From contig CM000429.1 of assembly GCA_000165345.1 (NCBI GenBank), positions 608,001-672,000 of the forward strand: a stretch of 64,000 bases of DNA, written 5' to 3'. Below, one piece after another: positions 15,601 through 64,000 of this stretch (its first letter is position 1; every line of letters begins with the position of its first letter). Made by a program: the position numbers and the translations under genes. A model generated the notes under the pieces. It was not told where the DNA came from. It did not search any database and saw only the letters and a program-made list of their open reading frames with translations.

Positions 15601-16179
15601 ATGTGCTATAATTTGTAACTGTGAGTTATCACCATTCTTTTCGTAGGCTAATTTTGAAGCTGCTCCTCCATTACTTTTTGAAGTTGTTTTGCTCGATGGG
15701 TTCGACTTGTTTCCAGAACTTAATAAAGCTACTGAGTTGCTTGCTTCAAGTTTTGAATTAACAATTTGGCTTTCTCCAGAATTTGGATTCTCGTCTTCAA
15801 CATCAGTTCCAACTGCAACAGTTTCACCGCCTCTAATTTGATGAACACCCATTATATCACTTACATTCTGCCTCCCGATATTTGGTTTTTGGTTAACTGG
15901 TACCTCCGAGAAGTTTGTTTCATTAACCGACTGAACAGTATCTCCATACCCAAATAAAGACATGAAATTGTTGGCTATTGCTCTAAATGCAGAATCCCTC
16001 ACTGCTTTGTTATTTTTAGAAGTTCTCTTATGCTCATTATTCTGGAATTGCGAATTTATACTATGTGATTTGGAATTTTCATTCGCATAAATATCATCAG
16101 AAATTATATTATTGGAAATATTACTTGTGTTCTCTTTTACCAGACCGATCATTCTATAACCCTTTCTCTCTCCTATCAC
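12685..16179 (-). CDS. Ser/Thr protein kinase with a very long N/S/G-rich low-complexity N-terminal region (1164 aa). The kinase domain is C-terminal.
   Basis: Catalytic motifs are present: VAAVK (VAIK-like), HKDLKSNNILID (catalytic loop), DFGDAEE (DFG), APPE and DVWSMGCIFLEIL. The first roughly 800 aa lack recognisable domains. Confidence 0.7.
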   Translation of the reverse strand: MIGERKGYRMIGLVKENTSNISNNIISDDIYANENSKSHSINSQFQNNEHKRTSKNNKAVRDSAFRAIANNFMSLFGYGDTVQSVNETNFSEVPVNQKPNIGRQNVSDIMGVHQIRGGETVAVGTDVEDENPNSGESQIVNSKLEASNSVALLSSGNKSNPSSKTTSKSNGGAASKLAYEKNGDNSQLQIIAHVSGRPVHAKYSYGKNKFKVAHKIVEQADTMHSGSEKEVAQIPNVPNHNSIIVPSPIIQFRQIPVQMVGKQHQIVYNTPLITKRVIPQTNKIVYQPIYTHNQVEMGSNGLAGSVGHGLVHKNLYSQEAIVGTNNLILGKELPGLYPVGVGTINALPNTNSYLGNSINNQILGFGTPLVGYRSMSHVPSNGFSNIDSNQSSGAELLDVNQETRLQSSNEAAASSMSHPRNGTVGSVGSAGSVCQPISSFGLGIPIQVKTLEEDNIKRKENVSSSKQTAQASKQVLRANNGNFQTLSLTTTTSSDTGSVTMSNHIVNAKAIQERPSNTNLDTTKTTVKENSNAQEKIKSENEHDLHKGFIPQASPVINYRSTLDYLVTPMVRYRDIASNLKVKTVPPQLSSNDACKYVTTEITGNNGIMSSSNGSNSPRNMNVMGSNEYKETVYTPVAPLLIPNYPVVPSGVGSPGVIEMANPKINSNINIIPGTVGYAGNSLSKQSQASNTQGSNPINGLVPGSSRGGRIFDGGLNSHIYRRAPVGVPQNLGYRLVRTVKNYVGPSKAPIGGNSIHKENYTREENLNYRNQNTRKGYVNKMYQYLADSSQFPPLPKEMYVGDIEFLTRPISSEPSAIKVKRFPTNSQDGETNVSQVKGSTPGKGREWDSINRGTFCTVYKVRHNECVAAVKCPQKRIHDSDPLMSRYRCYTEWKLLYRCNRHPNILNLIGGIRINEYEIWLVTEYIRTGDLFKLIHGNGSRSKAFRESVEYRYKVMYQLADSIRFLHSLSPKIVHKDLKSNNILIDENYNIRICDFGDAEELHYNTITCCTAVTWQYAPPEIVGCTDPARPNSNANEKVDVWSMGCIFLEILCKRTPLQHILDKVDESGKHSTLYNLIHSNKIEGELKIPPLPDSLYNLITMCLRPNPDLRASSKEVFDYLVNNEKKILKQLSYINQYKLSSGHSIVNNQKNDIKALSQLRAV

Positions 16180-16551
16180 CGATATTGATGTTTATTTATG
16201 TTGAAGTCGCTCTTTCCGTCATGAAATTACTTATCACCTTCCATTAATTAATATTGTCCCTAAGATCCTTTTTGCTACCTATTGCCTTTTTATCCTTTCT
16301 TATACCCACTAAGATTCAATTTTAACATGAAAGAGAGACAGCTGACGTTGTGTGGGTTTGTGGCACTAATTACATTATCGAGAAGTGGACAGTTCAAGAA
16401 TAAATCAGATTTTGATTCAAATCTATTTAAAATGACTCATTATTTATTTAAAAGAAAGTATCACTCAACGGTTGACTTTTTTGTAGAATTATTCCTCAAT
16501 CAACATTTAATCCTCGAAATTAAATAATGATTACCTCCACAAAAATAGTGA

Positions 16552-18466: not shown

Positions 18467-20545
18467 ATGAATTTCATTTTTGGAGCAATTTTGTGGGGCT
18501 TGTTAATCTTTCCTGCTCTCTTCCAAAAATGTCATGGTAATAAATATAGAACAAATTTGGACAAATATACTAAAATTTATCAGTACCAAACAAGCGAAAT
18601 TGAGCTTTATTTTCCAAATAATGATATTTTTGAGAATGAAAGAGAAAATTCCCAGGCTAAAGAGGAAATAAAAGATTTAAAGTCAACTAAAGTGAGCGAT
18701 ATTAGGTATAGCTTCATGAAATTAGGTAGAAAAGAATTTCTATGTGGTTTTGAGGGATATGGAAAAAATGATAGCCTTAATTTATCAGAAGAGACTAATC
18801 AATCTTGGGATAATATGAATTCTAAAGTCAAGAACTATTTAAAGAAGAGTAAAATTTCATGGTTAATGGAACGGTGCTTCATATATACAAAGAAGAAAGA
18901 TATTAATAATGGTATTCATGTCCAAGTAGATAACTTTGAAATATGTGTCGGTGTTTCAGTTCGTCACAAAAGACAGATAATTGACAAAGAAACCAGTGAC
19001 AATATATTAGAAAGTCAGTTCAATATTGTAGGCGATTATAAACCTACGGAAGACACATTTTATGAAAATGGAACAATCATCCAGTACTATAACCCAGCGA
19101 TAGAAAACTTAAAAGGAGATTCTGGGTATTCGGCTTCAATTGAGTTTAAATGTAGCTATAATAAATCAGGAATCAGTCAAGTAACAGAAGATGTTAACAA
19201 AGAATTTAAACCTGTGATTAAAGTAGACTTTTTGTCCCCTTCATTTTGTGATTGGAGGGTAGACGAAAGCAAGAATATTACATCTTTGCATAAGCTGGAA
19301 TCTTTACTGCTACCATTAGAAAACAGATGCCAAAACTTTACGGATTCAAGATTTTGGAATTATGAGCTTTGTAATCTGTACGTCGTATCTCAGTTCAAAA
19401 AAGACTCCTCAACTCAAGAATTGAGACTATTCAATTTAGGAATTCATCCAAACACTGCTCAAATACTAAATATAACAGATGATTTAGAAGAATATTTATC
19501 TAAGAATTTAATTTCAAATATAGTTAATACAATAAAGCCTGGTAGAGTTTCTTTACTTGAAAATATAACAACAAAAATCGAACCAAGAAACATAAACGAG
19601 TTGATTTCTGGAAAATATGTGCATAGTAAATATGTTATCACAGTAATGTTGTTAAATGGAACTTATTGTCCAGAAAATAATCAGAAAAGAAGTATTAAAT
19701 TAGTATTCGAATGCCCTGATAACTTTGAGAGTATCTCTGATTATTTTAGAATAGTAAATGTTATTGAGGATTCAACATGTAATTATGAAATGTTAATCAT
19801 TTCCCCCGTAATCTGCTCTCACCCTTTGTTGATGCCTCCTCCAATTTATAAGCACGGGAGAGTCAAATGCATACCTAAGAATTTGATTATTAACAAATTA
19901 ATAGAGGATGAATCTACAGAGCATTTGTTTGAATCTCAAGAAACAAGAAGTGAAAGTGGACTAGTTAGTATTAGTCAAATTGGCAATCAATTTGAAGCAG
20001 TTAATATAGAATATATAGATTCGACCAAGAATGGGAGCAGTACTCAACATTTCTTTACTCTGAGCGATTCTCCCAGGATTAGGAGCTCTAACCTAACTAG
20101 TCCAAAATTTTTGGTTGGTCAGATTGTGCAACATTTATGGTGGAACTATTATGGCGTCGTAGTTGGGTGGGATTGGGAACTAAATGCACCAAAACAATGG
20201 GCAGACAACATTTATCAAAAATACCCTCCAGAATCAAGGAAAAGGCCTCACTATTTGTTACTAGTTCATCAGGAAGAAACTCTCTTCAACAATTCATCGC
20301 CAATTGAATCTATTCCATCAAATCTCACACACACGTACATTCCAGAAATTGCATTAAAGCACGTTCCCAACTTAGATTCTGACAATCATTTCTCCAACAA
20401 AGATATCATTATTAATAAATATCTAAACACGTACTTCTCCTATTGGTCAGAAATCCATCAGAGATTTATACCTAACACAAATAGTACCCTTTGGAGAATT
20501 TACCCGAATGATTTCGACAAACTAAACGAAAGGGACGAACTATAG
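18467..20545 (+). CDS. Secreted/ER-lumenal lectin-like protein with MRH (mannose-6-phosphate-receptor homology) domain(s), a YccV/HspQ-like domain and a C-terminal RDEL (692 aa).
   Basis: There is an N-terminal signal peptide (MNFIFGAILWGLLIFPALFQKCHG). MRH-type spacing is YxNGTxC...VFECP...IEDSTCNYEMLIISPVIC. A GQIVQHLWWNYYGVVVGWDWE...HYLLLVHQEE block resembles the YccV/HspQ hemimethylated-DNA-binding-like domain. The terminal NERDEL is an ER retrieval signal. Confidence 0.5.
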   Translation: MNFIFGAILWGLLIFPALFQKCHGNKYRTNLDKYTKIYQYQTSEIELYFPNNDIFENERENSQAKEEIKDLKSTKVSDIRYSFMKLGRKEFLCGFEGYGKNDSLNLSEETNQSWDNMNSKVKNYLKKSKISWLMERCFIYTKKKDINNGIHVQVDNFEICVGVSVRHKRQIIDKETSDNILESQFNIVGDYKPTEDTFYENGTIIQYYNPAIENLKGDSGYSASIEFKCSYNKSGISQVTEDVNKEFKPVIKVDFLSPSFCDWRVDESKNITSLHKLESLLLPLENRCQNFTDSRFWNYELCNLYVVSQFKKDSSTQELRLFNLGIHPNTAQILNITDDLEEYLSKNLISNIVNTIKPGRVSLLENITTKIEPRNINELISGKYVHSKYVITVMLLNGTYCPENNQKRSIKLVFECPDNFESISDYFRIVNVIEDSTCNYEMLIISPVICSHPLLMPPPIYKHGRVKCIPKNLIINKLIEDESTEHLFESQETRSESGLVSISQIGNQFEAVNIEYIDSTKNGSSTQHFFTLSDSPRIRSSNLTSPKFLVGQIVQHLWWNYYGVVVGWDWELNAPKQWADNIYQKYPPESRKRPHYLLLVHQEETLFNNSSPIESIPSNLTHTYIPEIALKHVPNLDSDNHFSNKDIIINKYLNTYFSYWSEIHQRFIPNTNSTLWRIYPNDFDKLNERDEL

Positions 20546-22869
20546 ATACATTTATCGATATCTCACATTTAAAAATTAGAAATTTGTTAGTTATAGCTAC
20601 TTATAGTTTACATAATTACTTAGTAAAACACAATTAATTTTAGATTTAATCTTGTTTTCCTCATCATTTAAAATTAAAAAAATTATACGTAAGACTCTCC
20701 CCCGCCACACATGGCGCCATAACGTCACGTCGAGCCACGCAATTTTTTTGCAAATTGAGATTGAATCTAATCAGTATTAATCTGTCTTTCATTACTTGAA
20801 ATTCAGAATTCAGTAAGCATATTGCTCATTTTCAGTGGACCTTTAGGATTAAAGCTTTTCGTTTTCTGATGTGAATGGCACTATCATGGTAATTATAACG
20901 CTTCGATTGGCTCTATCATGGTAATATTTCTTTGATGGCTGTACAATGATTTGATTTGTATCATGGAAGATATTTGCATTTGATTTTTGTCACTAATGAA
21001 CGATGATAGTATTGAATTATGTGTTTTATGAGTGGAAAAACCACTCCAACTCTTTCGGAATTTCCTTATGAGTTTCTTTTATTATCTGGTTGTTAAAAGG
21101 GTGAACTATTTTTTTTCAGGTAATATCGATGACTTGCATAGTTTGATTATCTTCATGGTTTTTCATATCTTTATCAACTGGACCTGTTTTTGCCTAACTC
21201 TAGAACATATTTTTCTACTATTATCATCAGTATTCAGCAGTGACAAACCTGATTAACAAGCTATTGGTAAACTAAGGTAAATCATTGGTTGAGAATGAAA
21301 ATATCCTTTCTTGACTTAGTGGATCAATCTTCCTTGTGACTTGCCAGAGTTCCCCTAATATTTATTGTCAGATGAACGTGTATCAAATGACCTCTTATAT
21401 GTGAATTTATCCCTGAATTCCTAATCTTAGTGAGTATTATTCTAATTGGCCTTTGAACAGTATTTATATTACTGGTAGACCTTTTAAGGTTGCTTCTGTC
21501 TCAAATTCCATGACATCTCTTACCTGAGCTTATATATATCTTTTCCAAAGCCTTTTAAAAAAAAAATTGTTTGAAGTTTCAGATATCTTGAAAATATTAC
21601 GATCAATTTATCCATGTTTATTGTTAAAGAGCATTAGTTCCTTGGGATAGAATTTTGGTGTATTATGATTGAGTGTATATAGAGTTGCTTTATCCATACT
21701 TGGTTCCGGTAATACTTAACTAGATAATATTATTTGAACTATTTTATCTGGCAGTCACATGGAAGGGGTACTTGTACATTGTTGTGATCATTCCATTTTC
21801 TTGGCTTGTTATTTCAAAAGTATCGTCACTGCTGGATATATGATATACAATATTGAAAACAATTCGTCCATTTATGTATTTTTAATCACCAAACATTCAT
21901 TTGGTTTATACATTGTGCTACGCCATCATCCGTTATTCCAATCTCTATCTTATTTGAAATACAACAATTCAACGTTTTCCAACAAGCTTGTCTTATTTTT
22001 CTTTTTAAACTTTTAATTATTGCCATTAGATGAAGATATGTTGTATCATTGGATTTTGTGTATTCAAAGCAATATACATAATATTTGTAAAATAGTAATT
22101 TTATACAGGCTGAATTGTTTTTCTTTTAGGGATAAAGAAGATAACTTATTTCGAGAAAAGAAGATTTCTTTATATTGAAGATTTCAAGGATGCCAATTGA
22201 TAACGAACTCAAGCGGTTCCGAGCTATGAATAACTAAGATTTATAAGGATGTCTGTAATGCATCTCTTAGCATACTAATTCAGGTTATGTTTCAAGTTTA
22301 ACGCTTTTCCTAATGTTTTGGTTAGGTTATAAAGTCAATTTTTGAAGAAAAAGAGGAAAGAGGCTTTAATCTATTGTGGCGCAAATTTGCTCGAGATTAT
22401 GGGAGATGATAATTGATGTTCTAATGGCAGTGTTTTCAACATAATTAGAGGGATGTGTAGATAACTGGCGGTGCTTGATGATGAGAAATTTAGATTGTGT
22501 TCGGATGTCGAATCCGCTTCGAATTTGTTTCATTAGGTGAGGTTTAGTTGCAAGGTCATGTTTATGCATGTTGTGCGCGCCAAAAGTTGCTGCCATCCTC
22601 TAAGGTTGTATGAATGCCTTTCATCGTATTAGTCGCTTATTCTGAATGAGGTTTAGTGACTTTTTGCGAAAAAAGTCTTAATTTCGGAGTTAGGGTCATT
22701 AGTTCTTTTTAATTTTCTGTTTTTTTCCGATTATGTCTGAGCGGTGCCTCTGCTGTTCTGGTTAAGGATATACGCGGGAGACGGCCTTGTATTAGGCGGC
22801 AAGTGTGGTCTATAGTAATTTTTGACAATTGGTTGTAATGAGACTGATAATTGAATTAAATGAAATAAC

Positions 22870-25815
22870 ATGGAGGTGAACTCGAGTAATTTGTTAGTTC
22901 CTTTACATAGTATAGGATTTGTGACAGATGAAGTTCCATTTGCATTGGAGAAGCTAGGAGATGAATATTTTATTGTAGTTGCAACAGGTCACTACTATCA
23001 AGTATATGACTTGGACCAACTAAGGATTAAATATATATCTCAGAGGATGGAGAATAGAATAGAGAATTTGGTTACAAAGTATGAGACTGTTTATGTATCT
23101 ATGGGCAATAAAATTGTTGGTTATAATAGGCATGAAAAAACGTTTGAGATTGAACATAACTCAAGAGTAAAAGGAATGCTTGTTCTTGGTGAATTATTGA
23201 TTTCATGGGATAAGGAGACCATAATAGTTTCTGAGATAGATTCTAATAGACTAAAATGTGAAATTCTGGTTGATATGGATGTCTCCGAAGAAATTGTCAC
23301 AATTTTACATCCAGTCACATATTTGAACAAGGTATTAGTAGTTACATCGAAAGGATGTGAACTTTGGAATATTAATACTAAAAAAATGATACATAGATTT
23401 TCTTCAATACAAGTTGTTTTAAATGCTTCCAAAAGTATGAAGAATAAAATTGATAATAACGATAAGCAGAAAATAATTACTGCAGTAGCAAGCTCTCATC
23501 CAGATATAGTTGGGATTGGAACTCAAAATGGGATGGTGTATACACTAGATATTGCAAATGATATTATTTTACTTTCTCTCGAGCATATGCCTGAGCAGAA
23601 AGGGGTGAGAAGTGTAAGCTTTTGCTCTGAAAAGGCCATTTTGATTTCAGGTTGTGAAAATGGAGATATTGTACTATGGGATTTAGAAAATGCACGAGTT
23701 TTAAGTATATTAGACTCTGCTCATGAATCTGAGGTTGTTAAAGTTCAGTTTGTTCCAGGTGTTTTAATGTTTATTACCTCCGGTAAAGATAATGCACTAT
23801 TGGAATTTGTTATTGATAACCAAAATTCTCCACCTAGAGAACTTAGATCTAGGAGAGGGCACTTAAGCTCAATAATTAAAACACAGTTCTATAATGCTCT
23901 TCCAGAAAAAAGTAGAGACTTACTTTGTATTAGTAACTTTAGGAATTGTGGTTATCTTGGAAAAACATCTACAATACAACAACATCAAAATCGCATTTTT
24001 TCGCAAAACTCTCTTAAAAAGAAGTTTAATGAAAAGTATCAATTCCCCTTTAGCAGGTTACCACCTATAATAGATTTCTCATTTGCAGAATCTAGGCATT
24101 TTGACTGGCCAAATATAGTAACTATTCATCAAGGAATGCATGAAGTATTTGTTTGGAGTGGGCATAACTTTGCATTAACTCCAAATTTAATAACATTAGA
24201 GAACGTCCAAAGGCTTGACAAAAATAAGCAATCTAAGAGTAATCAATCCCAAAATTTTGTATCGCATGGTCTAACAGTTAAAAGAAAATCTCTACCTTTA
24301 GCAAAAGCCATCTCAGTTTCAGGTTGTGGAAACTATGTAGTTGTTGGATACTCTGATGGATCCATACATAGATTTAATCTACAATCATGTATTCATTCTG
24401 GGCAATTAATTCTTCCTGATAATTCTGAAATTAATCAACCAACTATGGAAATTCTTTCAATACATATTTCACACTCCACAATGGTTCTTTGCATTATAAG
24501 AGATTTGGATAATTACTACTTATCAACATGGTCGGTTAAGCCTATTAAATATTTAAATACCAAGATTATCCTAAGTAGAGCTTCTGTTCTATCAAATATA
24601 GAGACTCAAGAAGTGTTTATTTCCAAGCTGTTTGGATATTTATTAGCTTTAGGATTATCCGATGGCAGGGTTATTCTTTATGACTTCCAATCACAAGTAA
24701 TTTCTAGAGAATTCCAATGTGGTCATCATCATATTTTAGATATTACAATGTCTTCAGACAATAGGTGGATTGCAGTTTCAACAAAAAATAGTGAACTTTT
24801 TATATTTGATATAATTTCTTCAAACCTTTTGGATTGGGTCAAATTCAAATCTCCAGCTATTTGCTGTGTATTTGATCATTCAGATGCATTTCTAATAACA
24901 TCTCATGATCAATCAAAGGGATTACTTTCTGTTTGGGCAAATAAACATGCCTTAAGCATTTCAGTTGGAATTGAAGGTTTATCAAATCCTCCATCTGAAC
25001 CTTATTATATAGATGATCCTCCTAATAGAGTACTTTACTTTGAAGATTCAGACCAAACTTTAAAGAATGATAAAGATTCTACAAAGGCATCAGAATCTAG
25101 TGACAATACAAATTTGTCTGACTTTGATCTTCCTGAAAATGGAGACTATGATCCTTCCTTAATAGACAGAAAACTAATGTCATTTTCTGGAATTCCATTT
25201 TCAACTCTTCAAGCAATCTTATTTATTGATGAAATTAAAGAAAGAAACAAACCAATTGAACCACCAAAGAAACCAGAGAGTGCTCCATTTTTTCTACCAA
25301 ATACTACAGAATTCTCATCTACAATTCATAAACCCTCGAAAGAAAGCGATAATGAGGAAATAATCTCAAAAGATTTGGCAGAATCTAAAGATCCAAGTTC
25401 ATCACTTAAGACTGAGCTCCAAGAACTTTTAGAAAAAACTTCCTTGGATGATTCAGACTCTTTTTTAAGTATTACTAAGCTTTTAAAATCCAAATCTCCT
25501 TCTGGTGTAAATCTTCTTTTGAGACAATTAGGGCCTCTCAGTGGAGGATCTTTCCAAGAAATTGCTCAAATGATACATTACTTTAATATATCTATATCAA
25601 AAAGAACAGATTCTGAGTTGATTCAAACATACCTAAATATCTTTCTTAAAATTCATTCCACAACAATACTGGAAAATGAATCGGAATTTAAAGATTTTCA
25701 AGATATTATTCTTAAGCTTAATAACCTTGTAAAGAGTGACTGGGACTCTCTCCAAGACAGGCTTCATAATATCTCATGTTTTCTAAAGTTTGTTACAAAT
25801 ATTCAAATGGATTAA
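22870..25815 (+). CDS. UTP21: UTP21/WDR36-type WD40 protein of the small-subunit processome (981 aa).
   Basis: The N-terminus VPLHSIGFVTDEVPFALEKLGDEYFIVVATGHYYQVYDLDQLRIKYIS parallels yeast Utp21. Multiple WD repeats follow (e.g. GCENGDIVLWDL, GYSDGSIHRFNL), then a non-WD C-terminal domain. Confidence 0.65.
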   Translation: MEVNSSNLLVPLHSIGFVTDEVPFALEKLGDEYFIVVATGHYYQVYDLDQLRIKYISQRMENRIENLVTKYETVYVSMGNKIVGYNRHEKTFEIEHNSRVKGMLVLGELLISWDKETIIVSEIDSNRLKCEILVDMDVSEEIVTILHPVTYLNKVLVVTSKGCELWNINTKKMIHRFSSIQVVLNASKSMKNKIDNNDKQKIITAVASSHPDIVGIGTQNGMVYTLDIANDIILLSLEHMPEQKGVRSVSFCSEKAILISGCENGDIVLWDLENARVLSILDSAHESEVVKVQFVPGVLMFITSGKDNALLEFVIDNQNSPPRELRSRRGHLSSIIKTQFYNALPEKSRDLLCISNFRNCGYLGKTSTIQQHQNRIFSQNSLKKKFNEKYQFPFSRLPPIIDFSFAESRHFDWPNIVTIHQGMHEVFVWSGHNFALTPNLITLENVQRLDKNKQSKSNQSQNFVSHGLTVKRKSLPLAKAISVSGCGNYVVVGYSDGSIHRFNLQSCIHSGQLILPDNSEINQPTMEILSIHISHSTMVLCIIRDLDNYYLSTWSVKPIKYLNTKIILSRASVLSNIETQEVFISKLFGYLLALGLSDGRVILYDFQSQVISREFQCGHHHILDITMSSDNRWIAVSTKNSELFIFDIISSNLLDWVKFKSPAICCVFDHSDAFLITSHDQSKGLLSVWANKHALSISVGIEGLSNPPSEPYYIDDPPNRVLYFEDSDQTLKNDKDSTKASESSDNTNLSDFDLPENGDYDPSLIDRKLMSFSGIPFSTLQAILFIDEIKERNKPIEPPKKPESAPFFLPNTTEFSSTIHKPSKESDNEEIISKDLAESKDPSSSLKTELQELLEKTSLDDSDSFLSITKLLKSKSPSGVNLLLRQLGPLSGGSFQEIAQMIHYFNISISKRTDSELIQTYLNIFLKIHSTTILENESEFKDFQDIILKLNNLVKSDWDSLQDRLHNISCFLKFVTNIQMD

Positions 25816-29618: not shown

Positions 29619-31679
29619 TTAAAAAGCTTCTTCCTTTTCAAATACATACTCATCAGAGTCTATTTCATCTTTTTCTGCTTGAACCTTTATATTTGACCCT
29701 TGTTCCATTCTATTTATAAACCACTTACAAAAAATGGAATTTAGTCGTTCTCTGAGTTTTTCTTCATCATTTCCCTCTAAAAAAGGATTAGAAAGATATA
29801 TTTTTAATTGTGTGATTTACCACACAAAACCTACCTAGTAAATCTGACAAATTTGTTGAATTCTCAGGATCGCATCTAGAAAGTATTTCAAATAGGCCAT
29901 TTTTAAATACTATGGAATCCGATCTCATCACCATAGATGCTAAGTTCTTGGAAATGATTGGGGAATATTTTTCTACCGAGCTTTTATAGTTAAATTCTTT
30001 GATATTAACAAGTTCCATTGGAAACTTAACTTGACAACCTTTCATTAAACTTTTTAACGATTGTTGAATAATTGTAGAAAGCCCAACATTGCTTTTCAGA
30101 CTACTCTTTCCCAAAGTACCATACTGAATTCCATGGCCTTTAACATTAATAAATAGAACTCTAATACTAAATTCAACCGTTGGAATTACCATTATTGGAA
30201 GTAAGAATTCACTCTAAAATTATTATAATTTAGATATTGTATTTTAATATATCGCTATTAAAATAGCTAACTTACCCCAGAAAATACTGAAAGTTTCTCA
30301 TGATTATTTTCTAATATTTCATCTTTTTTTGCCAATTTCATTCCAAAGATATTTCCTTTCTTTCTGATGAAGCTTTTAACTGATGTTACAATATCACAAT
30401 ATTCTGTATCTTTACAAATAATTGGCATTCCATTCGAAAAACGGTAAACGTAAAGATAGCCTGTCTTTAGAGAAGTTGTTTGAGATGTATTGGATATATT
30501 TAAGTTTGATTGGTTTTCTTTATCAACATTTTGATATTCAATATCATCTACTTGGTTTTCTTTTTTCACATGAAATTCTCTTAAAAAACCGAAAACTGAA
30601 TCAATCTTATATTTAGATCCTTTATTACTTGAATACCGAATAAAATTATCTTCAAAAATATCGAAAAATGATAAATTGATATTTCCTTTTATCAAATCAG
30701 AAGCATCCATTTTCATATTTGTTTCAAAGTTTAAGAAAATATGGCTATTCCAAAATTTAGAAAGTACCAAATAACTTTGAATCTTCTTAAGGCATGATTT
30801 TGCATAAAGTTCCATAGAAAAGTACTTCTCTTGTAAGTATTCTAGTCCTAAGCTCATTTTCATAGACACTGAGAATTCAGTTATCCAATCCCAATTGGTA
30901 TAATCAAAACTCTCACTATTCCCTACATAAAAAGATCCATCATTCAGGTTACAAAGCAGAGTAAACTCCCAAATCTTGTTTCCCATTCTCATCTTAACTT
31001 TAACGTTTCCTTCTCCATGTTGTGTAGCATAAAGTAATATCATTTTAAGGCCTACCCCAAATTGTCCTGTATAATAAGAATCTCTTTTATTTATTTTCTT
31101 ACTAAAAGATGAATCAGAATTAAAAATTTAATCAATCACTTTAAATACAATTAATATTTAAACTCACTTTGTTCCAAAAAGAGTTCCCAATAGGTCAATG
31201 GATTCTAAAGGTATTCCGCATCCTGTATCTCTTACAATGATGTTTATTCTTGCCTTAAAGTTCAAACCAATTTTAATAAAAAATCAAATTTATTAATACT
31301 AGTCCTGTATTTTACTTACCTGATCATCCAATTCTAAATTCTCAAAATTCACAGAGATTTCTATTTTTTTTGGAAAATCATGCCACTCTGCTTTTGCCTT
31401 ATTATTACATGCATCTATAGAGTTATCAAAAAGTTCCTAAATAAAAAAAATCAATCCAAATTAAACTAAAAGCTACATTGCAAATTAAATCTTATTTAAC
31501 TTACCTTGAAAGCCATAAAAGGAGCATTTTCTGAGTCAAATCCAGTAATCCCAATGTCTATAGAATCATAGAAAAGTTAGTTATTACTTGTAAATCCACT
31601 CAAAGAAATATATATTTCACAAAAGAATCACAAAAAACTTACTTTCTGAAAAGAAATTAATTGCTGAAATATTGGACAT
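29619..31679 (-). CDS. DNA topoisomerase VI subunit B-like GHKL ATPase, 7 exons: 31679..31643, 31557..31505, 31436..31320, 31253..31168, 31101..30276, 30213..29835, 29776..29619.
   Basis: The spliced N-terminus MSNISAINFFSENIGITGFDSENAPFMAFKELFDNSIDAC...ARINIIVRDTGCGIPLESIDLLGTLFGTNKKINKRDSYYTGQFGVGLKMILLYATQ aligns motif for motif with archaeal Top6B ([36 protein letters not shown]...KVNVVDNGIGIP...FGRVLYSSKY...TRGMYGLGVKAAVLYSQ). All six introns are 58-85 nt with GTAAGT/GTGAGT/GTAGGT donors, and the phases are consistent. The last exon adds an acidic tail. The ORF track shows only two internal fragments (258 and 134 aa). Confidence 0.65.
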
Positions 31680-31783
31680 TTTAGAAAAATATCTTTTTAG
31701 ATTGATGCAAATTATTTCTCTGATTCCACTTTTAATTAATATTTTTTCACACATTGGCTGTCAATTATGACTGTGGGGGCCCG

Positions 31784-31791
31784 TTGGCGCC
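31784..31791. promoter_or_regulatory. TTGGCGCC site in a GC-rich patch (ctgtgggggcccgttggcgccgaatgg) between the Top6B-like start (minus strand, 31679) and the TOM7-like mini-gene start (plus strand, 31915). It may serve as a bidirectional promoter element.
   Basis: Seen directly. Confidence 0.45.
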
Positions 31792-31914
31792 GAATGGAGT
31801 TATAATTATTTCCTAAATTCCTAATACTTTGAAAAATAAAATAAAATAAAACAGAGAAAACTTCTGAATAATAATTAATATTGCATTTCTATTATACTTT
31901 GAAATATTGAAATA

Positions 31915-32221
31915 ATGAGATACTCACAAGTATACTCCAAACTTTTATATGATAAGATTCTCAAATTGAATCAAATATATTTGAACATAATTAAAAGTGG
32001 CATTTCTAAGGTAAGAAATAAACTACTAACTCCTTATTACTCATGAAAAATTTATTTTCTATTAAATTACGCAGATATACCATAAATTTATCCTATTTTG
32101 GTACAGATATGCAAAGAAAGTGTTTCATTATGGTCTGATACCAGGTACTTATTTATATACTTTGTGGAAAGAGGATGAATTCACACTAAATCCTATCAAG
32201 TTAGCACGGGTTCTTATCTAA
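31915..32221 (+). CDS. Candidate 2-exon mini-gene (31915..32010, 32075..32221) encoding an 80-aa single-transmembrane peptide with a TOM7-like motif.
   Basis: Exon 1 (32 codons from the ATG) ends exactly at a GTAAGA donor. The 64-nt intron contains a TACTAAC branch consensus (32025..32031) and ends in CGCAG. Exon 2 is open for 48 codons but has no in-frame ATG of its own. The product ...KFILFWYRYAKKVFHYGLIPGTYLYTLWKEDEFTLNPIKLARVLI resembles TOM7 (yeast HNVAHYGWIPFVLYLGWAHTSNRPNFLNLLSP; plant HYGFIPLVIFVG). It is not in the ORF track because each exon is under 60 aa. Confidence 0.35.
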
Positions 32222-32309
32222 AACACCTAGAGGTCGTTTTTATTTCCTCTTCCATTTATTAATTATAGTTGTTATAATTCAATAATTTTTTTTTTTCTTC
32301 TATTTTTTA

Positions 32310-33521
32310 TTAGTCCCCTTTCATACTATAAGGCTTATTGAATTTTCCTGGAACATAGTTTTCCCATCTATATGCTGGAAAAACATGTTTGTTCTTTTCG
32401 TACCACTGTCTTTTAACTACTTTTCCTGCGTGAGACTAAACAATTGTGAAGAATAGTATTAAAATCATATTATGAAAATTAGGTAAAAGTATGATTTAAC
32501 TTACTTCAGTAGTCTCTTTACTGACATCACTTTTTTCACGAATATCATCAAATACATTAAAGTGGAACAAGGGACCTTAAATTTGTCAAAAACATAGGCC
32601 AGTTAAAGTTTCCTAATATTTGCTATAAAACCCAAGCTTACCTGATTTCCCTCTAGCCTTAGTCTTAATAAGCTCATGAAAGGTAATTGTATGTGGTAAA
32701 ATTACGTCTTCTTTTATATACATTAGAGATGCACTTTAATGAACAAGTTTGAAGGGATAAGTTATAAAATTTGAAAATTTGTGAAAATTGACAGGAATTA
32801 GCTATGGATTCTTATTATCAGTTCTAACTTACCTAGAAAGCCTTGAAAATTCTTTGAATTCTGATTTTAGCTTTATTCTACATTTCTCAAGAAATTCGCC
32901 AATTGTAGTATTCCTTGGAACATGAACAGATCTTCTGTGGCCACTTCCATCCCAATATGAAAATACAACTTCAATTATCTCTTGTTTCAGTTTCTCTTCT
33001 TTTTCAAATTCCTCTTGTTTCAGTTTTTCTCTTGCTTTCGCTTCTTCAAGCTCTCTTTTTTTATCGGGAAGAAAGGATGTATCTATAGATGTATCTTTTC
33101 CTATTGTACTAAAGTCAAACTCTGAGTGTTTTTCTAAAGATTCTGTGGATTTGTTTTCTCCTGATAAAGAATCTTTTATAGCTGTTAAAGTAATTTCTTT
33201 GGATATAGTCTCTGATCGGTCCTCTTTATCAGGAATTTGGTCTGGTATATCGTCTCCTTGATTAAATTCGAATGATAAGGTATTGTATTTCATCTTTTTA
33301 GGTTTGGATTCCGGAATGATCTTTGTTTTCTTTGAAACATTTTCAGGCTTAATCCCCCTTCGAATATCACTTATATGCCTTTTATAAGTTTCCATAGAAA
33401 CAAGTCCCATAGTTCTTGACCTAAACTGCTCCTCATCCTCAGTAGACTTACTGTAAAACATCTCCTCTATACTTTTCATCGTTTGCTTCAACACTGCATC
33501 CAAGACTAATAAAAGCAGCAA
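32310..33521 (-). CDS. XAP5/FAM50-family nuclear protein, 4 exons: 33521..32833, 32733..32642, 32575..32505, 32435..32310.
   Basis: The spliced C-terminal half [27 protein letters not shown]...[47 protein letters not shown]...[29 protein letters not shown] is near-identical in pattern to human FAM50A ([15 protein letters not shown]...[41 protein letters not shown]...[29 protein letters not shown]). Introns are 99, 66 and 69 nt, with GTAAGT/GTAAGC donors. The start codon choice (33521 or an internal Met) is uncertain. Confidence 0.7.
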
Positions 33522-46432: not shown

Positions 46433-47188
46433 TAATTCACTTTGTTGTCATTTTGCGGGACTATTACTTTTTTCTCATTTATTCCTCACTTTTCCCGTTT
46501 GTCAGCTTTAATATACTTCTGAATTCCCGCCATATTTAATTTATCCTCGTATTTTCGTAAAAAAAAATGCCAAATAAAATTTATGTGGAAATTATTTCAT
46601 AATCTTTCCACGCAGCGAAATCTCAAAGAAACTTTGTTTCCCGATTGATTTTGGTCGGAATTTTCCTTCTCCTTATTAAGGAACATTGTAATATTCAGAA
46701 ATAGTTTCTCTTCGTATTCTTGACTGTTTTAATCAATTTCTCTGCTGTGCATGCCCCCCATTATGCCTTTGGAAGCAACAGAATAGCTTGATATGGAGAA
46801 TTTTTCTCAAGCTTGATACATCCTTCCTAAAATAATACTTCCTTTCTGAACTAGTCCCAAATTTATTAATCTGGTGGATTTATGATTATATTTAACCTAA
46901 ATCTACCGAATATTGTTTTCTTTTATAAGATTTAAACAGCCCTATGGGAACATACCACTACACCTAGTAGTAATTATAACTTTATTTAATTTTGGAATTT
47001 TTGTGTAATTATTTTCTTTAAACAGATTATTTGCATTTATTCATAATTATCACAATTAACCAAAATAATGCCGGCAAAATAATTAAATATTAATATTCCC
47101 ACACACATTGAAATATGTTATATCAATAACTGGATTTCTATTTGAATTGTAAATACTTAATTTAGTGAAATCCTGAAAGCCTAATTTA

Positions 47189-48397
47189 ATGAGCTCAGAA
47201 ACTGCTTCAATTGAAATTGGAAAGTCTGCCATTGTAAGTTAACTTAATTCCAAATTAACATGGTAAATTATTTGAAATTGAAATTTAATTAAACTTTAAA
47301 TATACCATAATAGATTAACTCTGAAGCTATTGGGCATAAAATCAACTCTCTTGAAGATAAGTATTACAGTATAAAAAGGTACCATGAATCTCGTTTAAAA
47401 GTAAGTGCTAATTTATTTTTTCCAAGATATTATAAAATATACATAATAATTAGGACTTAAGCTCAGAAATCAAGGAGCTTTCAAAGCTTATAAACAAGGA
47501 ACAAAATGATATTCAAGAAATAAAATCTATAAAAGAAAAAAAGTTGAGAGAAGTCGAGTTGAAAATATCAAACCAAATTTTGGAATTACGGGAAATTAGA
47601 AATGAATCTGATACTTTAATTGAAAACAAAATTAAGGACCATTTACACAGGATGGAAACTTTAGAATTCAACAAATCATCAGAAATAGATATTCGAAGAG
47701 AAGATCAATTCGAGAAGATTTCAAGTTCATTAAATGACTTAACTCAAAAAGTTGAATATTTAAGGAAGAGAAGGTAAGTTAATTTTCCCAACTGGTTTGT
47801 TAGCATTCAAATCAGAATTACTTATGATATACTTTATTCTTGAACTTAAAATTTGTCCTTCCCAAACTCTTCTTCATCTAGAAAGAATATTCTTACATCA
47901 TTTAAAAAAGAACTTGCAAATGGTAAGTTTACAACTAATAATATGAAGATGGTATTTCGTTGGTATAATGTTTATTTGTAATATATGGATGTAGCAATTC
48001 TAAATCCATTTTCATGTAAATACTATCTATTTCTTGATTAATTATTTGGACAAATTTACTCTAATTATTTTCCTCCTTTAACAATAACAATAGAATCGGA
48101 GAATATATTAAAATCCATTCAAGAAGAATCTAACAGAAGGGAATACTCTGTCCAAAGCATGAAACAGTAAGTTTTAGAGTTTACTAAGATTTTAATGTAA
48201 TAATCAAAATATTGTCTTTATTTGAAAGACTATTAGACGACACAATGAATCACTTTCTGACGGAAATGGCAGCCTCAAGGACTAGTAGATTGGAAATGGA
48301 TAAGCAAATTATTGACCAATTAGAGCTTGCTTGTCAAGATACTGAAAATAAGTTAGCTAGGATGATAAGCTCAAATGAAAATCAAAAAGACAACTAA
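47189..48397 (+). CDS. Coiled-coil protein, 6 exons: 47189..47233, 47314..47400, 47454..47773, 47882..47922, 48094..48166, 48229..48397. About 262 aa, family unassigned.
   Basis: Exons were linked by GTAAGT donors and YAG acceptors (introns 80, 53, 108, 171 and 62 nt), with all phases consistent and no in-frame stops. The product is a heptad-rich helical protein (MSSETASIEIGKSAI|INSEAIGHKINSLEDKYYSIKRYHESRLK|DLSSEIKELSKLINKEQ...YLRKRR|KNILTSFKKELAN|ESENILKSIQEESNRREYSVQSMKQ|LLDDTMNHF...). The ORF track shows only two fragments (77 and 61 aa). Confidence 0.5.
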
Positions 48398-48412
48398 ATT
48401 ATTTCTCCTCTC

Positions 48413-52954: not shown

Positions 52955-53182
52955 ATTTAATTAATGTTTTTTCAAAATACTCGTCACCAAGATTAACCGC
53001 CAAAAGTTGGCGCTCAGTTTTTTGCTGACATTAAGAGATACAAATAAATTCGAATAAAAAAAGATTTATAAGAACTCCGAGAAAGAAAAGAAAGGAGTAT
53101 TTTGAATTATTTTTCATTAGATGAGTGCAAAATACTGACCTGTGACTTTGAGTTTTGGAATTTGGAGTGAAACTCTTAAGAG

Positions 53183-64000
<10,818 letters not shown>

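Follow-up and report, generated by a model that had tools for sequence, protein, structure and literature searches.

A probable genus-conserved long non-coding RNA locus between cgd1_2870 and UTP21 on chromosome 1 of Cryptosporidium parvum

Cryptosporidium has a very compact genome and its gene regulation is poorly understood; the average intergenic distance in C. parvum is 504 bp (PMC7840661). [quoted passage not shown] 2021, PMC7840661). An E2F-like ‘motif1’ was reported upstream of C. parvum lncRNAs in that study, and bidirectional promoters were proposed for many of them. One, the RNA-seq-assembled Cp_lnc_60, carries CCCCCGCCACA at −83 and ATGGCGCCATA at −71 (PMC7840661). A further class, transcripts of low coding potential typified by Cdg7_FLc_0990, comes from a full-length cDNA library and is delivered into host nuclei (Wang et al. 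2017, cited in PMC7840661).

We analysed a 64-kb window (the whole stretch of 64,000 nucleotides) of C. parvum chromosome 1, whose UTP21 protein was matched exactly in C. parvum assemblies. Between the stop codon of an MRH/YccV protein and the ATG of UTP21 lie 2,324 bp (20546-22869) whose largest open reading frames (ORFs) encode 85 (+ strand), 76 (− strand) and 74 (+ strand) amino acids. An earlier note, made from the letters alone, had called this an unusually long ORF-free region, and this is borne out: no other gap in the window between ORFs of 90 aa or more is as long, the median being 385 bp and the next longest, of 1,980 and 1,785 bp, both containing exon-like fragments. The missing ORFs are in themselves a chance expectation, since this is non-coding DNA at 32% GC, the same as its surroundings; the features that are not due to chance are its length, conserved synteny and sequence conservation. 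We favour, with measured confidence, the reading that the interval is a genus-conserved lncRNA locus, most likely made of two convergent, independently promoted units. The interval corresponds to CP044422.1:245,749-248,072 and lies, in the CpBGF annotation, between cpbgf_1002870 and the UTP21 gene. Its features and neighbours are as follows.

18467-20545, + strand: PRKCSH/MRH and YccV-domain protein (cgd1_2870)
20697-20745, unstranded: promoter block P2, with E2F-type CCCCCGCCACA (20699-20709), ATGGCGCCAT(A) (20711-20721), then CGTCACGTCG
20782-22140, + strand: T1, conserved non-coding body, its start placed from motif offsets
20873-20893 and 20905-20925, + strand: two direct 21-nt repeats, GA(A/T)TGGC(A/T)CTATCATGGTAAT
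21030-21047, unstranded: hairpin H1, GAGTGG-AAAAA-CCACTC, 6 bp
21231-21244, unstranded: left arm of a long-range inverted repeat, TATTCAGCAGTGAC (opposite-strand core TTGTCACTGCTG)
21759-22016, + strand: 85-aa ORF, CPATCC_0036430 / cpbgf_1002880 / F0X544, judged spurious
21825-21838, unstranded: right arm of the long-range inverted repeat, GTCACTGCTGGATA
22117-22131, + strand: polypyrimidine tract then AG (TTGTTTTTCTTTTAG followed by GG), at the right-hand margin of the conserved body
22309-22326, unstranded: hairpin H2, CCTAA-TGTTTTGG-TTAGG (minus-strand reading CCUAA-CCAAAACA-UUAGG)
22366-22596, − strand: cgd1_2880, ‘13 kDa membrane protein’, which rests on a real sporozoite cDNA
22390-22725, − strand: T2, stretch covered by sporozoite cDNA AAB32917, judged non-coding
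22740-22860, unstranded: promoter block P1, shared with UTP21 (back-to-back), with GCGGGA (22774) and GGCGGCAAG (22795)
22870-25815, + strand: UTP21

The gap between the same two genes was found in nine other Cryptosporidium genomes, and the locus keeps its position throughout the intestinal species. It measures 2,086-2,686 bp in C. hominis, chipmunk genotype I, C. ubiquitum, C. canis, C. felis, C. bovis, C. ryanae and one further species; C. muris is the shorter case, with 1,303 bp that cannot be aligned to the C. parvum gap and in which nhmmer profiles found no similarity to it. The profiles also found no paralogue of the T1 body in the 64-kb window, where it is single copy. Alignment with sister species, a check proposed in the earlier note, revealed conserved blocks: over about 1.4 kb (20700-22140) conservation stands well above that of 4-fold sites and ordinary spacers, at about the level of the MRH gene. 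For chipmunk genotype I, C. ubiquitum, C. canis and C. felis, respectively, identity to C. parvum is.85/.79/.63/.53 over 20700-21360 and.76/.73/.51/.42 over 21361-22140, compared with.73/.64/.32/.39 at 4-fold sites,.68-.80/.54-.70/.30-.48/.32-.47 in ordinary spacers and.84/.78/.64/.61 in the MRH coding sequence. The constraint falls in blocks of 40-140 nt with spacers between them. For the T1 body, we found no earlier description of its coding-level sequence conservation over 1.4 kb in at least seven species. Where 4-fold sites have reached saturation, a non-coding element held as tightly as a protein gene makes a strong candidate for either a functional RNA or a chromosomal element; such elements are rare in Cryptosporidium, and this one is directly testable with existing C. 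parvum CRISPR tools.

It is very improbable, in light of this pattern, that the interval is just an outsized spacer or what is left of a decayed gene. Such a reading would sit well with the lack of ORFs and of any Rfam match, and with the distal part (22141-22790), which evolves about neutrally and includes a poorly conserved zone (22140-22300). However, the core lies far above 4-fold sites and ordinary spacers in at least six species, and the length of the gap is kept across the genus. A decayed gene, one of the candidates raised earlier, is rejected on the slow evolution of the core, together with the missing codon periodicity, frame-breaking indels and unconserved ORFs described below. The earlier note had equated a plain spacer with absence of both transcription and cross-species conservation; here there is evidence of each.

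The conserved core has none of the signatures of a protein-coding sequence. Three-nucleotide substitution periodicity was not detected (p > 0.2 in 15 of 16 windows), compared with p = 1e-3 to 1e-19 for the flanking coding sequences used as controls, and the lengths of alignment gaps are not multiples of three. Each of the three largest ORFs is disrupted in sister species. In the 85-aa ORF a frameshift is present even in C. hominis, and stops interrupt it in all other species; in C. felis a conserved nucleotide block falls in a shifted reading frame. The proposal of a fast-evolving multi-intron gene with tiny exons is likewise rejected: the core evolves slowly, codon periodicity is lacking, indels break the frame and the ORFs are not conserved.

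The region is not free of annotation, as two tiny ORFs are listed as C. parvum ‘proteins’ (cgd1_2880/CPATCC_0036420 and CPATCC_0036430/cpbgf_1002880). Four IOWA-ATCC locus tags (000113-000116), listed with expression clusters, fall between UTP21 (000112) and MRH (000117). The 85-aa ORF has a 2011-era UniProt identifier, F0X544, which we believe derives from the full-length cDNA set. The ‘13 kDa membrane protein’ cgd1_2880 has its source in AAB32917, a directional sporozoite cDNA. The peptide AAB32917.1 is a minus-strand translation running from 22725 to 22390 (336 nt) that passes over five in-frame stops; EFGTR flanks it, which we take to be residues encoded by the EcoRI adaptor of the cloning kit, and its end coincides with an XhoI site of the genome, CTCGAG. 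The CP15/60 antigen was considered as the origin of the ‘13 kDa’ name and discarded, since CP15/60 is cgd7_4540.

That the 76-aa and 85-aa products are real small proteins, or that a micro-exon gene is present, is hardly credible. Several C. parvum records do list their ORFs as proteins, one ORF under an old antigen-style name, but the absence of codon periodicity, the broken frames and the shifted frame in C. felis all count against them, as do the five stops skipped in the founding ‘peptide’. Beyond C. parvum and C. hominis the cgd1_2880 ORF is disrupted, and its dN/dS exceeds 1.1 (PMC4637869), a value published as a sign of ‘positive selection’ that follows from the sequence being non-coding. 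With five stops skipped, no ORF conservation, no periodicity and this dN/dS, a protein reading of cgd1_2880 is untenable, and the stretch more plausibly forms the 5′ portion of a transcript that does not code. The tiny ‘proteins’ annotated in the gap are almost certainly spurious. Of the ‘hypothetical proteins’ on record, two or three (cgd1_2880/cpbgf_1002887/CPATCC_0036420 and cpbgf_1002880/CPATCC_0036430) should be re-filed as non-coding RNA, one of them already in print as a protein under positive selection. Parts of the locus are in the literature already, partly mis-annotated as proteins.

At the left end, the GC-rich block and the palindrome described in the earlier note are both real; the quoted block corresponds to 20697-20740 and the palindrome, ATGGCGCCAT, to 20711-20720. 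The GACG...GGCGCC/GCGC of P2 is kept in 9/9 aligned species, and all ten GGCGCC sites in the 64-kb window lie in spacers beside gene starts. We took as E2F/DP1-type a conserved GGCGCC / (C/G)GCGC(C/G) or GCGGGA-type site 50-200 bp from a start site. P2, with its conserved, promoter-proximal site of the GGCGCC class, is by this definition a candidate E2F/DP1-type promoter with putative E2F binding, and both ends of the locus probably carry promoters of this type. The two Cp_lnc_60 11-mers match 20699-20721 exactly, in the same order and with the same 12-nt spacing, and because the Cp_lnc_60 motif offsets fit these positions, a plus-strand start is placed near 20782. The right end of T1 (22140) was set where conservation falls off and is not a mapped 3′ end. 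Among the entries listed in the source, Cp_lnc_60 is absent between Cp_lnc_59 and Cp_lnc_61 in the final lncRNA FASTA and absent from the expression table, and 13-15-mers from the core of the gap match none of the FASTA entries listed; in the parts of the source consulted, the evidence for Cp_lnc_60 is confined to the motif table (PMC7840661).

At the right end, the 5′ end of the T2 cDNA (22725) sits on the motif AAACAAAAAATTAA, which is kept in 9/9 species. The conserved block of P1 spans 22795-22844 (TTGTCAAA-ATTAC on the minus strand), and identity along the T2 stretch itself is near neutral. Logan assemblies queried with the small ORFs returned genomic contigs and no transcript contigs.

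The proposal that the lncRNA is spliced finds no support in the sequence. GTAAGT, named earlier among several donor-like sites, occurs on neither strand of the gap. The gap has a single CAGGTAAGA, a non-conserved one at 21518 (minus strand), and GGTAAT occurs four times on the plus strand. The sole strongly conserved splice-like element is the acceptor-like site at 22117-22129, with AG after about 10/12 pyrimidines in 8/9 species and an AAG variant in C. felis. It is unpaired, as no conserved canonical (GTAAGT-like) donor was found on either strand of the gap. This element (22117-22131) may be 3′ splice-site-like, or a 3′-end or termination element.

The direct repeat CTATCATGGTAAT noted earlier is real and its first copy lies at 20881 as given; the second starts at 20913, not 20915, and the supposed partial third copy at 20951 is actually ATCATGG at 20960. 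The second copy of the 21-nt repeat has a CCAAT box on the opposite strand, and an inverted partial copy, ACGATGATAGT, lies at 21000-21010. The repeat core CTATCATGG is kept in both copies in seven species. Further along, the 14-nt arms of the long-range inverted repeat are 93% complementary, 580 nt apart and near-invariant in 9/9 species; a third TTTGTCACT lies at 20986. Essentially no covariation was found in the 21231-21244 / 21825-21838 pairing across nine species, and since the arms are invariant this helix is uninformative.

RNAalifold was run in sliding windows on 7- and 5-species alignments of both strands, with column-shuffle z-scores and coding-sequence controls; whole-core minimum-free-energy folds were made without a shuffle control. 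The windows revealed no extensive conserved fold, just two or three local hairpins, and the structure conservation index (SCI) of the core is mostly below 0.2, against a coding-control median of 0.38-0.47. The region of H1 (20950-21110) reaches an SCI of 0.5-0.68 with z down to −7.8, and its pairs are mostly invariant, with two one-sided G-U changes, no compensatory change and a break in one species. The region of H2 (22240-22400) has an SCI of 0.45-0.77 and z below −9; in C. felis (CCCGA/UCGGG) two of the five H2 pairs have changed on both sides in a compensatory way, and the loop is invariant. Assigning the folding strand from G-U wobble was tried and abandoned: H1 and the CTATCATGG/ATGATAG pairing offer too few changes, and these are contradictory or no better than chance.

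These patterns bear on the possibility that selection acts on the DNA rather than on an RNA, the core being a cluster of protein-binding sites (an enhancer, insulator, replication origin or small regional centromere) and the transcripts by-products. Conserved motifs occur in both orientations (CTATCATGG as +, +, −; TTGTCACT as +, −, +) and the long inverted pair is invariant rather than covarying, so protein-binding DNA sites fit as well as RNA. The low SCI across the core, the E2F- and CCAAT-like boxes and the conserved gap length also agree with a DNA element, and Cryptosporidium centromeres go unmentioned in the telomere-to-telomere paper (PMC12179316). On the other hand, 1.4 kb of near-continuous coding-level constraint far exceeds promoters elsewhere, where the mean intergenic distance is 504 bp; the transcripts have their own promoters on both strands; and the compensatory changes in H2 are of an RNA type. 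Centromeric DNA normally evolves fast, which contrasts with the near-coding constraint seen here, and the centromeres of Plasmodium are AT-enriched. At 32% GC the gap has no such enrichment. A Plasmodium-type centromere (gene-free over about 2-2.5 kb, of extreme A+T content, one per chromosome, with CENH3) is disfavoured on composition, the GC of 0.32 equalling that of the surroundings. Overall, we regard a DNA element as possible but rather unlikely.

Known RNA classes gave no match. The Rfam scan proposed in the earlier note matched no family at the gathering threshold in the whole 64-kb window; at E ≤ 10 the gap gave four matches only, of 16-20 bits with E-values above 3, and tRNA/tmRNA scans yielded nothing usable. 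The block-and-spacer pattern of conservation could suggest that the long transcript is a precursor or host of small stable RNAs (snoRNAs or intermediate-size ncRNAs), with the 40-140-nt blocks as mature products; few C. parvum snoRNAs are known, and many conserved intergenic intermediate-size ncRNAs have been reported (PMC9465071). Weak C/D-box snoRNA matches do occur on the minus strand at 21865-21933 and 21352-21433, but at about 20 bits (E-values 3-7) they fall short of the gathering cut-offs, 45-48. C. ubiquitum has GACGAC in place of the putative C box, a D box closed by a terminal stem is absent, and conservation is comparatively low in the guide-like stretches beside CUGA. More generally, C/D- or H/ACA-box-like strings are present in the blocks but not conserved across species, and a small-RNA host is an improbable reading.

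A Cryptosporidium telomerase RNA, for which we found no report in the literature searched, would fit the size class and the conserved synteny of a long ncRNA. The telomere repeat TTTAGG is confirmed for Cryptosporidium (PMC12179316), and its complement CUAAACCU occurs twice on the C. parvum minus strand (22540 and 22649). These 8-mers, however, lie in the least conserved part and their position is not kept even in C. ubiquitum; C. canis has no repeat 7-mer on either strand, counts equal the shuffled expectation, the (CCTAAA)n 7-mer is on the plus strand of no species and the best-conserved blocks include no telomere-like sequence. As far as a conserved template goes (at least 7 nt; 7- and 8-mers, both strands, all species), a telomerase RNA is refuted, and we give this identity almost no credence. 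Literature searches likewise found no Cdg1_FLc RNA for this locus, and membership of the host-delivered class is not evidenced here.

An lncRNA locus, the first of the candidates in the earlier note, is thus supported by transcript evidence on both strands, strong conservation and the absence of a coding signature. Synteny, above-neutral conservation, promoter-type motifs at both ends and transcript evidence for the T1 start and for 336 nt of T2 were observed. The locus fits a long intergenic non-coding RNA, being longer than 200 nt, with its own promoter, no coding capacity and no real protein gene overlapped. As a working model, T1 would start near 20782, about 60 nt past the end of the E2F-type palindrome, correspond to Cp_lnc_60 and span the 1.4-kb conserved body under an E2F/DP1 programme. 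T1 would be the functional product, acting as a lincRNA through primary-sequence modules (three copies of CTATCATGG, three of TTGTCACT(GCTG) and the other 40-140-nt blocks) that may offer docking sites to proteins or nucleic acids; it probably does not rely on an extensive fold, since there are just two conserved hairpins, both short. T2 would start near 22725, back-to-back with UTP21, and its main effect may come from the act of convergent transcription or from termination within 22140-22300, where conservation is poor. More speculatively, and with low expectation, T1 could be a lincRNA specific to the genus in intestinal Cryptosporidium and under protein-level selection, whose modules CTATCATGG and TTGTCACTGCTG recruit a specific RNA- or DNA-binding factor. 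It would then be an essential RNA that regulates or scaffolds in trans, or else the transcribed centre of a chromosome element, for example a centromere. Cryptosporidium, where such an RNA would act if real, lacks RNAi, and few of its regulators are known.

The telomerase RNA of Plasmodium is reportedly about 2.2 kb, a size credited to Chakrabarti et al. 2007. The present locus resembles it as a long, syntenic, genus-conserved apicomplexan ncRNA without a match to an Rfam model, but differs in having no conserved TTTAGG template and little conserved secondary structure. With the Cdg7_FLc_0990 class (Wang et al. 2017, cited in PMC7840661) it shares sporozoite expression and cDNA support in the absence of a credible ORF. 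As in the divergent lncRNA/mRNA arrangements of compact genomes, the start of T2 lies on the other strand some 145 bp from the ATG of UTP21, in a conserved E2F-motif block; unlike those arrangements, or convergent ones, a separately promoted and far better conserved T1 converges on it. The nearest parallel is Cp_lnc_60 and the set of Li et al. 2021 (PMC7840661), with which T1 shares the ‘motif1’ pair, an RNA-seq transcript longer than 200 nt and the lack of coding potential, and of which upstream E2F motifs, present at T1, are typical. Cp_lnc_60 was filed there as ‘antisense RNA’, that is, opposite an mRNA model annotated at the time. Most lncRNAs of that set lie antisense to genuine genes, and it was their expression, not their sequence, that was examined for conservation (PMC7840661), whereas the body of T1 is conserved in sequence.

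The 2,324-bp gap at 20546-22869 has cgd1_2870 on one side and the UTP21 gene on the other. The left flank is a PRKCSH/MRH and YccV-domain protein (18467-20545, + strand; EAK88351/CPATCC_000117, C. hominis orthologue CHM_1g2870; MRH below) and the right flank is UTP21 (22870-25815, + strand; EAK88349/CPATCC_000112), whose protein has an exact copy in C. parvum assemblies such as GCA_015245375.1 (CP044422.1). Together these matches place the window on C. parvum chromosome 1. The earlier note had singled the interval out as unusually long and ORF-poor, and both descriptions hold: among the gaps separating ORFs of 90 aa or more it is the longest in the window (median 385 bp), and its largest ORF is 85 aa. 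The next-longest two gaps differ in kind, since they hold coding fragments or annotated exons. Exons are annotated within 31044-32828 in reference records; 46433-48412 (1,980 bp), the second-longest ORF-poor stretch, carries + strand ORF fragments (47544-47777 and 48212-48397) that resemble coiled-coil protein and is therefore probably a multi-exon gene. At the far end of the window, an uninterrupted + strand frame (53180-64000, at least 3,607 codons) runs past the window end and represents a giant gene.

Orthologous loci were retrieved from nine further genomes via their UTP21 proteins. A gene-poor gap separates the same two genes in all nine: C. hominis (2,310 bp), chipmunk genotype I (2,305 bp), C. 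ubiquitum (2,329 bp), C. canis (2,194 bp), C. felis (2,086 bp), the Logan SRR31860986 species (2,686 bp), C. bovis (2,561 bp), C. ryanae (2,516 bp) and C. muris (1,303 bp). The Logan contig (SRR31860986_710, 11,758 bp) has the same gene order, its version of the gap is 40% GC, and its UTP21 shares 73% identity with the C. parvum protein, a distance similar to C. canis and C. felis. Some reference annotations of these loci contain fusions that look like annotation artefacts: LSM and SNARE merged into a 361-aa product (C. ubiquitum, L007 12079-13472), kinase and CPSF_A merged into 2,669 aa (C. canis, L008 1-457), and XAP5 merged with HATPase (C. felis, L009 13645-16931).

Identity to C. parvum from the whole-locus alignment (chipmunk genotype I / C. 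ubiquitum / C. canis / C. felis)
Core 20700-21360:.85/.79/.63/.53
21361-22140:.76/.73/.51/.42
22141-22790:.64/.57/.39/.32
4-fold degenerate sites, three flanking genes:.73/.64/.32/.39
Ordinary spacers:.68-.80/.54-.70/.30-.48/.32-.47
MRH coding sequence:.84/.78/.64/.61

Set against 4-fold degenerate sites, ordinary spacers and the MRH coding sequence, these identities indicate purifying selection on approximately 1.4 kb (20700-22140). Constraint on the first 650 nt is at the level of a protein gene, while the UTP21-proximal part drifts. Alignment of sister species, proposed in the earlier note, brought out conserved blocks in 20700-22140. Several short strings in the gap are invariant, C. bovis and C. 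ryanae included; no similarity to the gap was detected in C. muris. The core is single-copy within the 64-kb window.

Features of the gap
20697-20745: P2, putative left-end promoter block
approximately 20782-22140, + strand: conserved non-coding body of the proposed transcription unit T1
22725 to 22390, minus strand: cDNA-covered part of the proposed transcription unit T2
22740-22860: P1, putative promoter block common to T2 and UTP21, with GCGGGA at 22774 and GGCGGCAAG at 22795
21030-21047: hairpin H1, 6 bp; two one-sided G-U changes, no compensatory changes
22309-22326: hairpin H2, 5 bp; compensatory double changes in two pairs (C. felis), 8-nt loop invariant
Conserved blocks: 20709-20751, 20857-20939, 20969-21055, 21128-21270, 21292-21356, 21802-21842, 22040-22091 and 22795-22844 (the last in P1)

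Elsewhere in the window, the block 16265-16395 (continuing to 16153) shows approximately 95% identity across eight Cryptosporidium species, with values of 0.77-0.97 per 100 nt that extend to C. bovis and C. ryanae. It lies in the spacer directly upstream of a minus-strand protein kinase gene (ATG near 16152), and its minus-strand reading contains two short uORFs, ATGTTAAAATTGAATCTTAGTGGGTATAAGAAAGGATAA and ATGACGGAAAGAGCGACTTCAACATAA. It has no Rfam match and could represent either a small ncRNA or a regulatory 5' leader.

Substitutions in the gap fall evenly across codon phases (p > 0.2 in 15 of 16 150-nt windows, minimum 0.016), against p = 1e-3 to 1e-19 in all UTP21 and MRH control windows. 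Each of the three largest ORFs is interrupted in other species, the 85-aa ORF by a frameshift already in C. hominis. Indel lengths are mostly not multiples of three, and in C. felis a -4/+1 indel pair leaves a perfectly conserved nucleotide block in a shifted frame. The even phases and interrupted ORFs argue against the multi-intron coding gene that had been among the candidates. Two tiny gap ORFs are annotated as proteins; the 85-aa ORF (+ strand) is CPATCC_0036430 / cpbgf_1002880 / F0X544. On the minus strand, cgd1_2880 (the '13 kDa membrane protein') is one of the 22 'proteins' for which Isaza et al. 2015 (PMC4637869) list a dN/dS exceeding 1.1. Such a value is expected of non-coding sequence.

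This legacy name traces back to AAB32917.1, a sporozoite-cDNA peptide of 119 aa, which is the exact minus-strand translation of 22725 to 22390 with five in-frame stop codons omitted. The entry is a conceptual translation with stops silently dropped and vector residues retained at both ends, and its name has since spread into genome annotations. Its N-terminal EFGTR is encoded by AATTCGGCACGAG, the EcoRI adaptor used in directional ZAP-cDNA libraries, and its other end is at a genomic CTCGAG (XhoI). We read the source as a directional cDNA whose minus-strand 5' end is at approximately 22725 and whose other end comes from cleavage at an internal XhoI site, so that the T2 transcript would extend past 22390. 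The 5' end falls on the motif AAACAAAAAATTAA, found in all nine aligned species.

For the + strand, the motif table of an RNA-seq study of C. parvum lncRNAs (Li et al. 2021, PMC7840661) includes the rows 'Cp_lnc_60-RA, +, -83, CCCCCGCCACA' and '+, -71, ATGGCGCCATA'. The motifs in these rows are those at 20699-20709 and 20711-20721, and their order and 12-nt spacing both agree; with 22 specified bases, the match is effectively unique in the 9-Mb genome. Since both are '+' and the farther one is on the left, Cp_lnc_60 would run in the window + direction from near 20782, a position on the conserved TCTGTCTTTCA. That source classes it as 'antisense', meaning opposite a then-current mRNA model. In the accessible part of its final FASTA the numbering passes from 59 to 61 with no Cp_lnc_60 entry, and no gap-core 13-15-mers were found. 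The pipeline, as outlined there, drops transcripts overlapping annotated mRNAs on the same strand, so the 85-aa 'mRNA' may be Cp_lnc_60 under a new label. Between UTP21 (000112) and MRH (000117) there are four IOWA-ATCC locus tags (000113-000116), and CPATCC_0001130-0001160 are listed with expression clusters.

All nine aligned species retain P2, whose GC-rich block and palindrome ATGGCGCCAT (20711-20720) are as first described. The direct repeat reported nearby exists, with copies starting at 20881, as reported, and at 20913, and with the partial copy at 20960. All ten GGCGCC sites in the 64-kb window (4631, 6489, 16554, 20713, 29502, 31786, 41075, 42598, 49385 and 49976) are in spacers, 60-560 bp and mostly 60-180 bp from gene starts. 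They illustrate the E2F-type promoter motif cleanly on a local scale; five carry the extended palindrome TGGCGCCA. P1 separates the T2 start from the UTP21 ATG. A GTAAT/GTAAG string in it (22815-22824, +), 55 nt upstream of that ATG, is kept in all nine species. On the minus strand it belongs to TTGTCAAA-ATTAC, and it is treated here as a P1 promoter element; being donor-like on the + strand, it may instead be the donor of a 5'-UTR intron in UTP21.

The splice donors suggested earlier fared poorly: GTAAGT is absent from both gap strands, and the single CAGGTAAGA, on the minus strand, is non-conserved. A polypyrimidine-AG at 22117-22129 (+), kept in 8-9 species at the left edge of 22140-22300, is a candidate acceptor, 3'-end or termination signal. 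No conserved donor was found to pair with it.

Sliding RNAalifold windows with column-shuffle z-scores yielded local elements only: H1, H2 and weaker signals at 20830-20960 and 22000-22130. The structure conservation index elsewhere in the gap is mostly <0.2, against a coding-control median of 0.38-0.47; coding controls gave z < -3 in 8-10% of windows. A 14-nt inverted pair (21231-21244 / 21825-21838) is uninformative because it is nearly invariant. The Rfam scan, also suggested earlier, gave no above-threshold match anywhere in the 64-kb window, the best in the gap being snoRNA look-alikes of approximately 20 bits. Telomerase RNA was considered and fails. CCTAAA/AGGTTT is the repeat found at the telomeres (PMC12179316). 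In C. parvum the two CUAAACCU strings fall within the drifting part and show no positional conservation, and counts of telomere-repeat 7-mers match shuffled expectation, with none in the C. canis gap. The drifting part also holds an exact 11-nt direct repeat, TGAGGTTTAGT (22538-22548 and 22647-22657, 109 nt apart), including the telomere-like AGGTTTAG; occurring in C. parvum and C. hominis alone, it probably reflects chance or a recent event.

The locus is real, conserved, transcribed and non-coding, in line with the lncRNA candidate of the earlier note. Two convergent units would fit the data: T1 from P2 on the + strand, approximately 20782 to 22140, across the conserved body, and T2 from P1 on the minus strand, from approximately 22725 downwards, across the drifting part, the two meeting in the least conserved zone (22140-22300). 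Constraint is mainly in primary sequence and motifs recur in both orientations, which makes a DNA-element function the main rival explanation for the conservation, albeit an unlikely one. We lean towards a lincRNA locus, with an RNA that may act via conserved sequence modules. The most fitting description is a lincRNA gene (T1) together with a non-coding transcript divergent from UTP21 (T2), both with probable E2F-type promoters. The E2F-like 'motif1' is the common motif upstream of C. parvum lncRNAs. As far as we found, the literature reports neither that the 1.4-kb body is conserved at coding level throughout the intestinal Cryptosporidium species nor that the annotated ORFs are non-coding; it already covers part of the locus, under an lncRNA number and untenable protein names.
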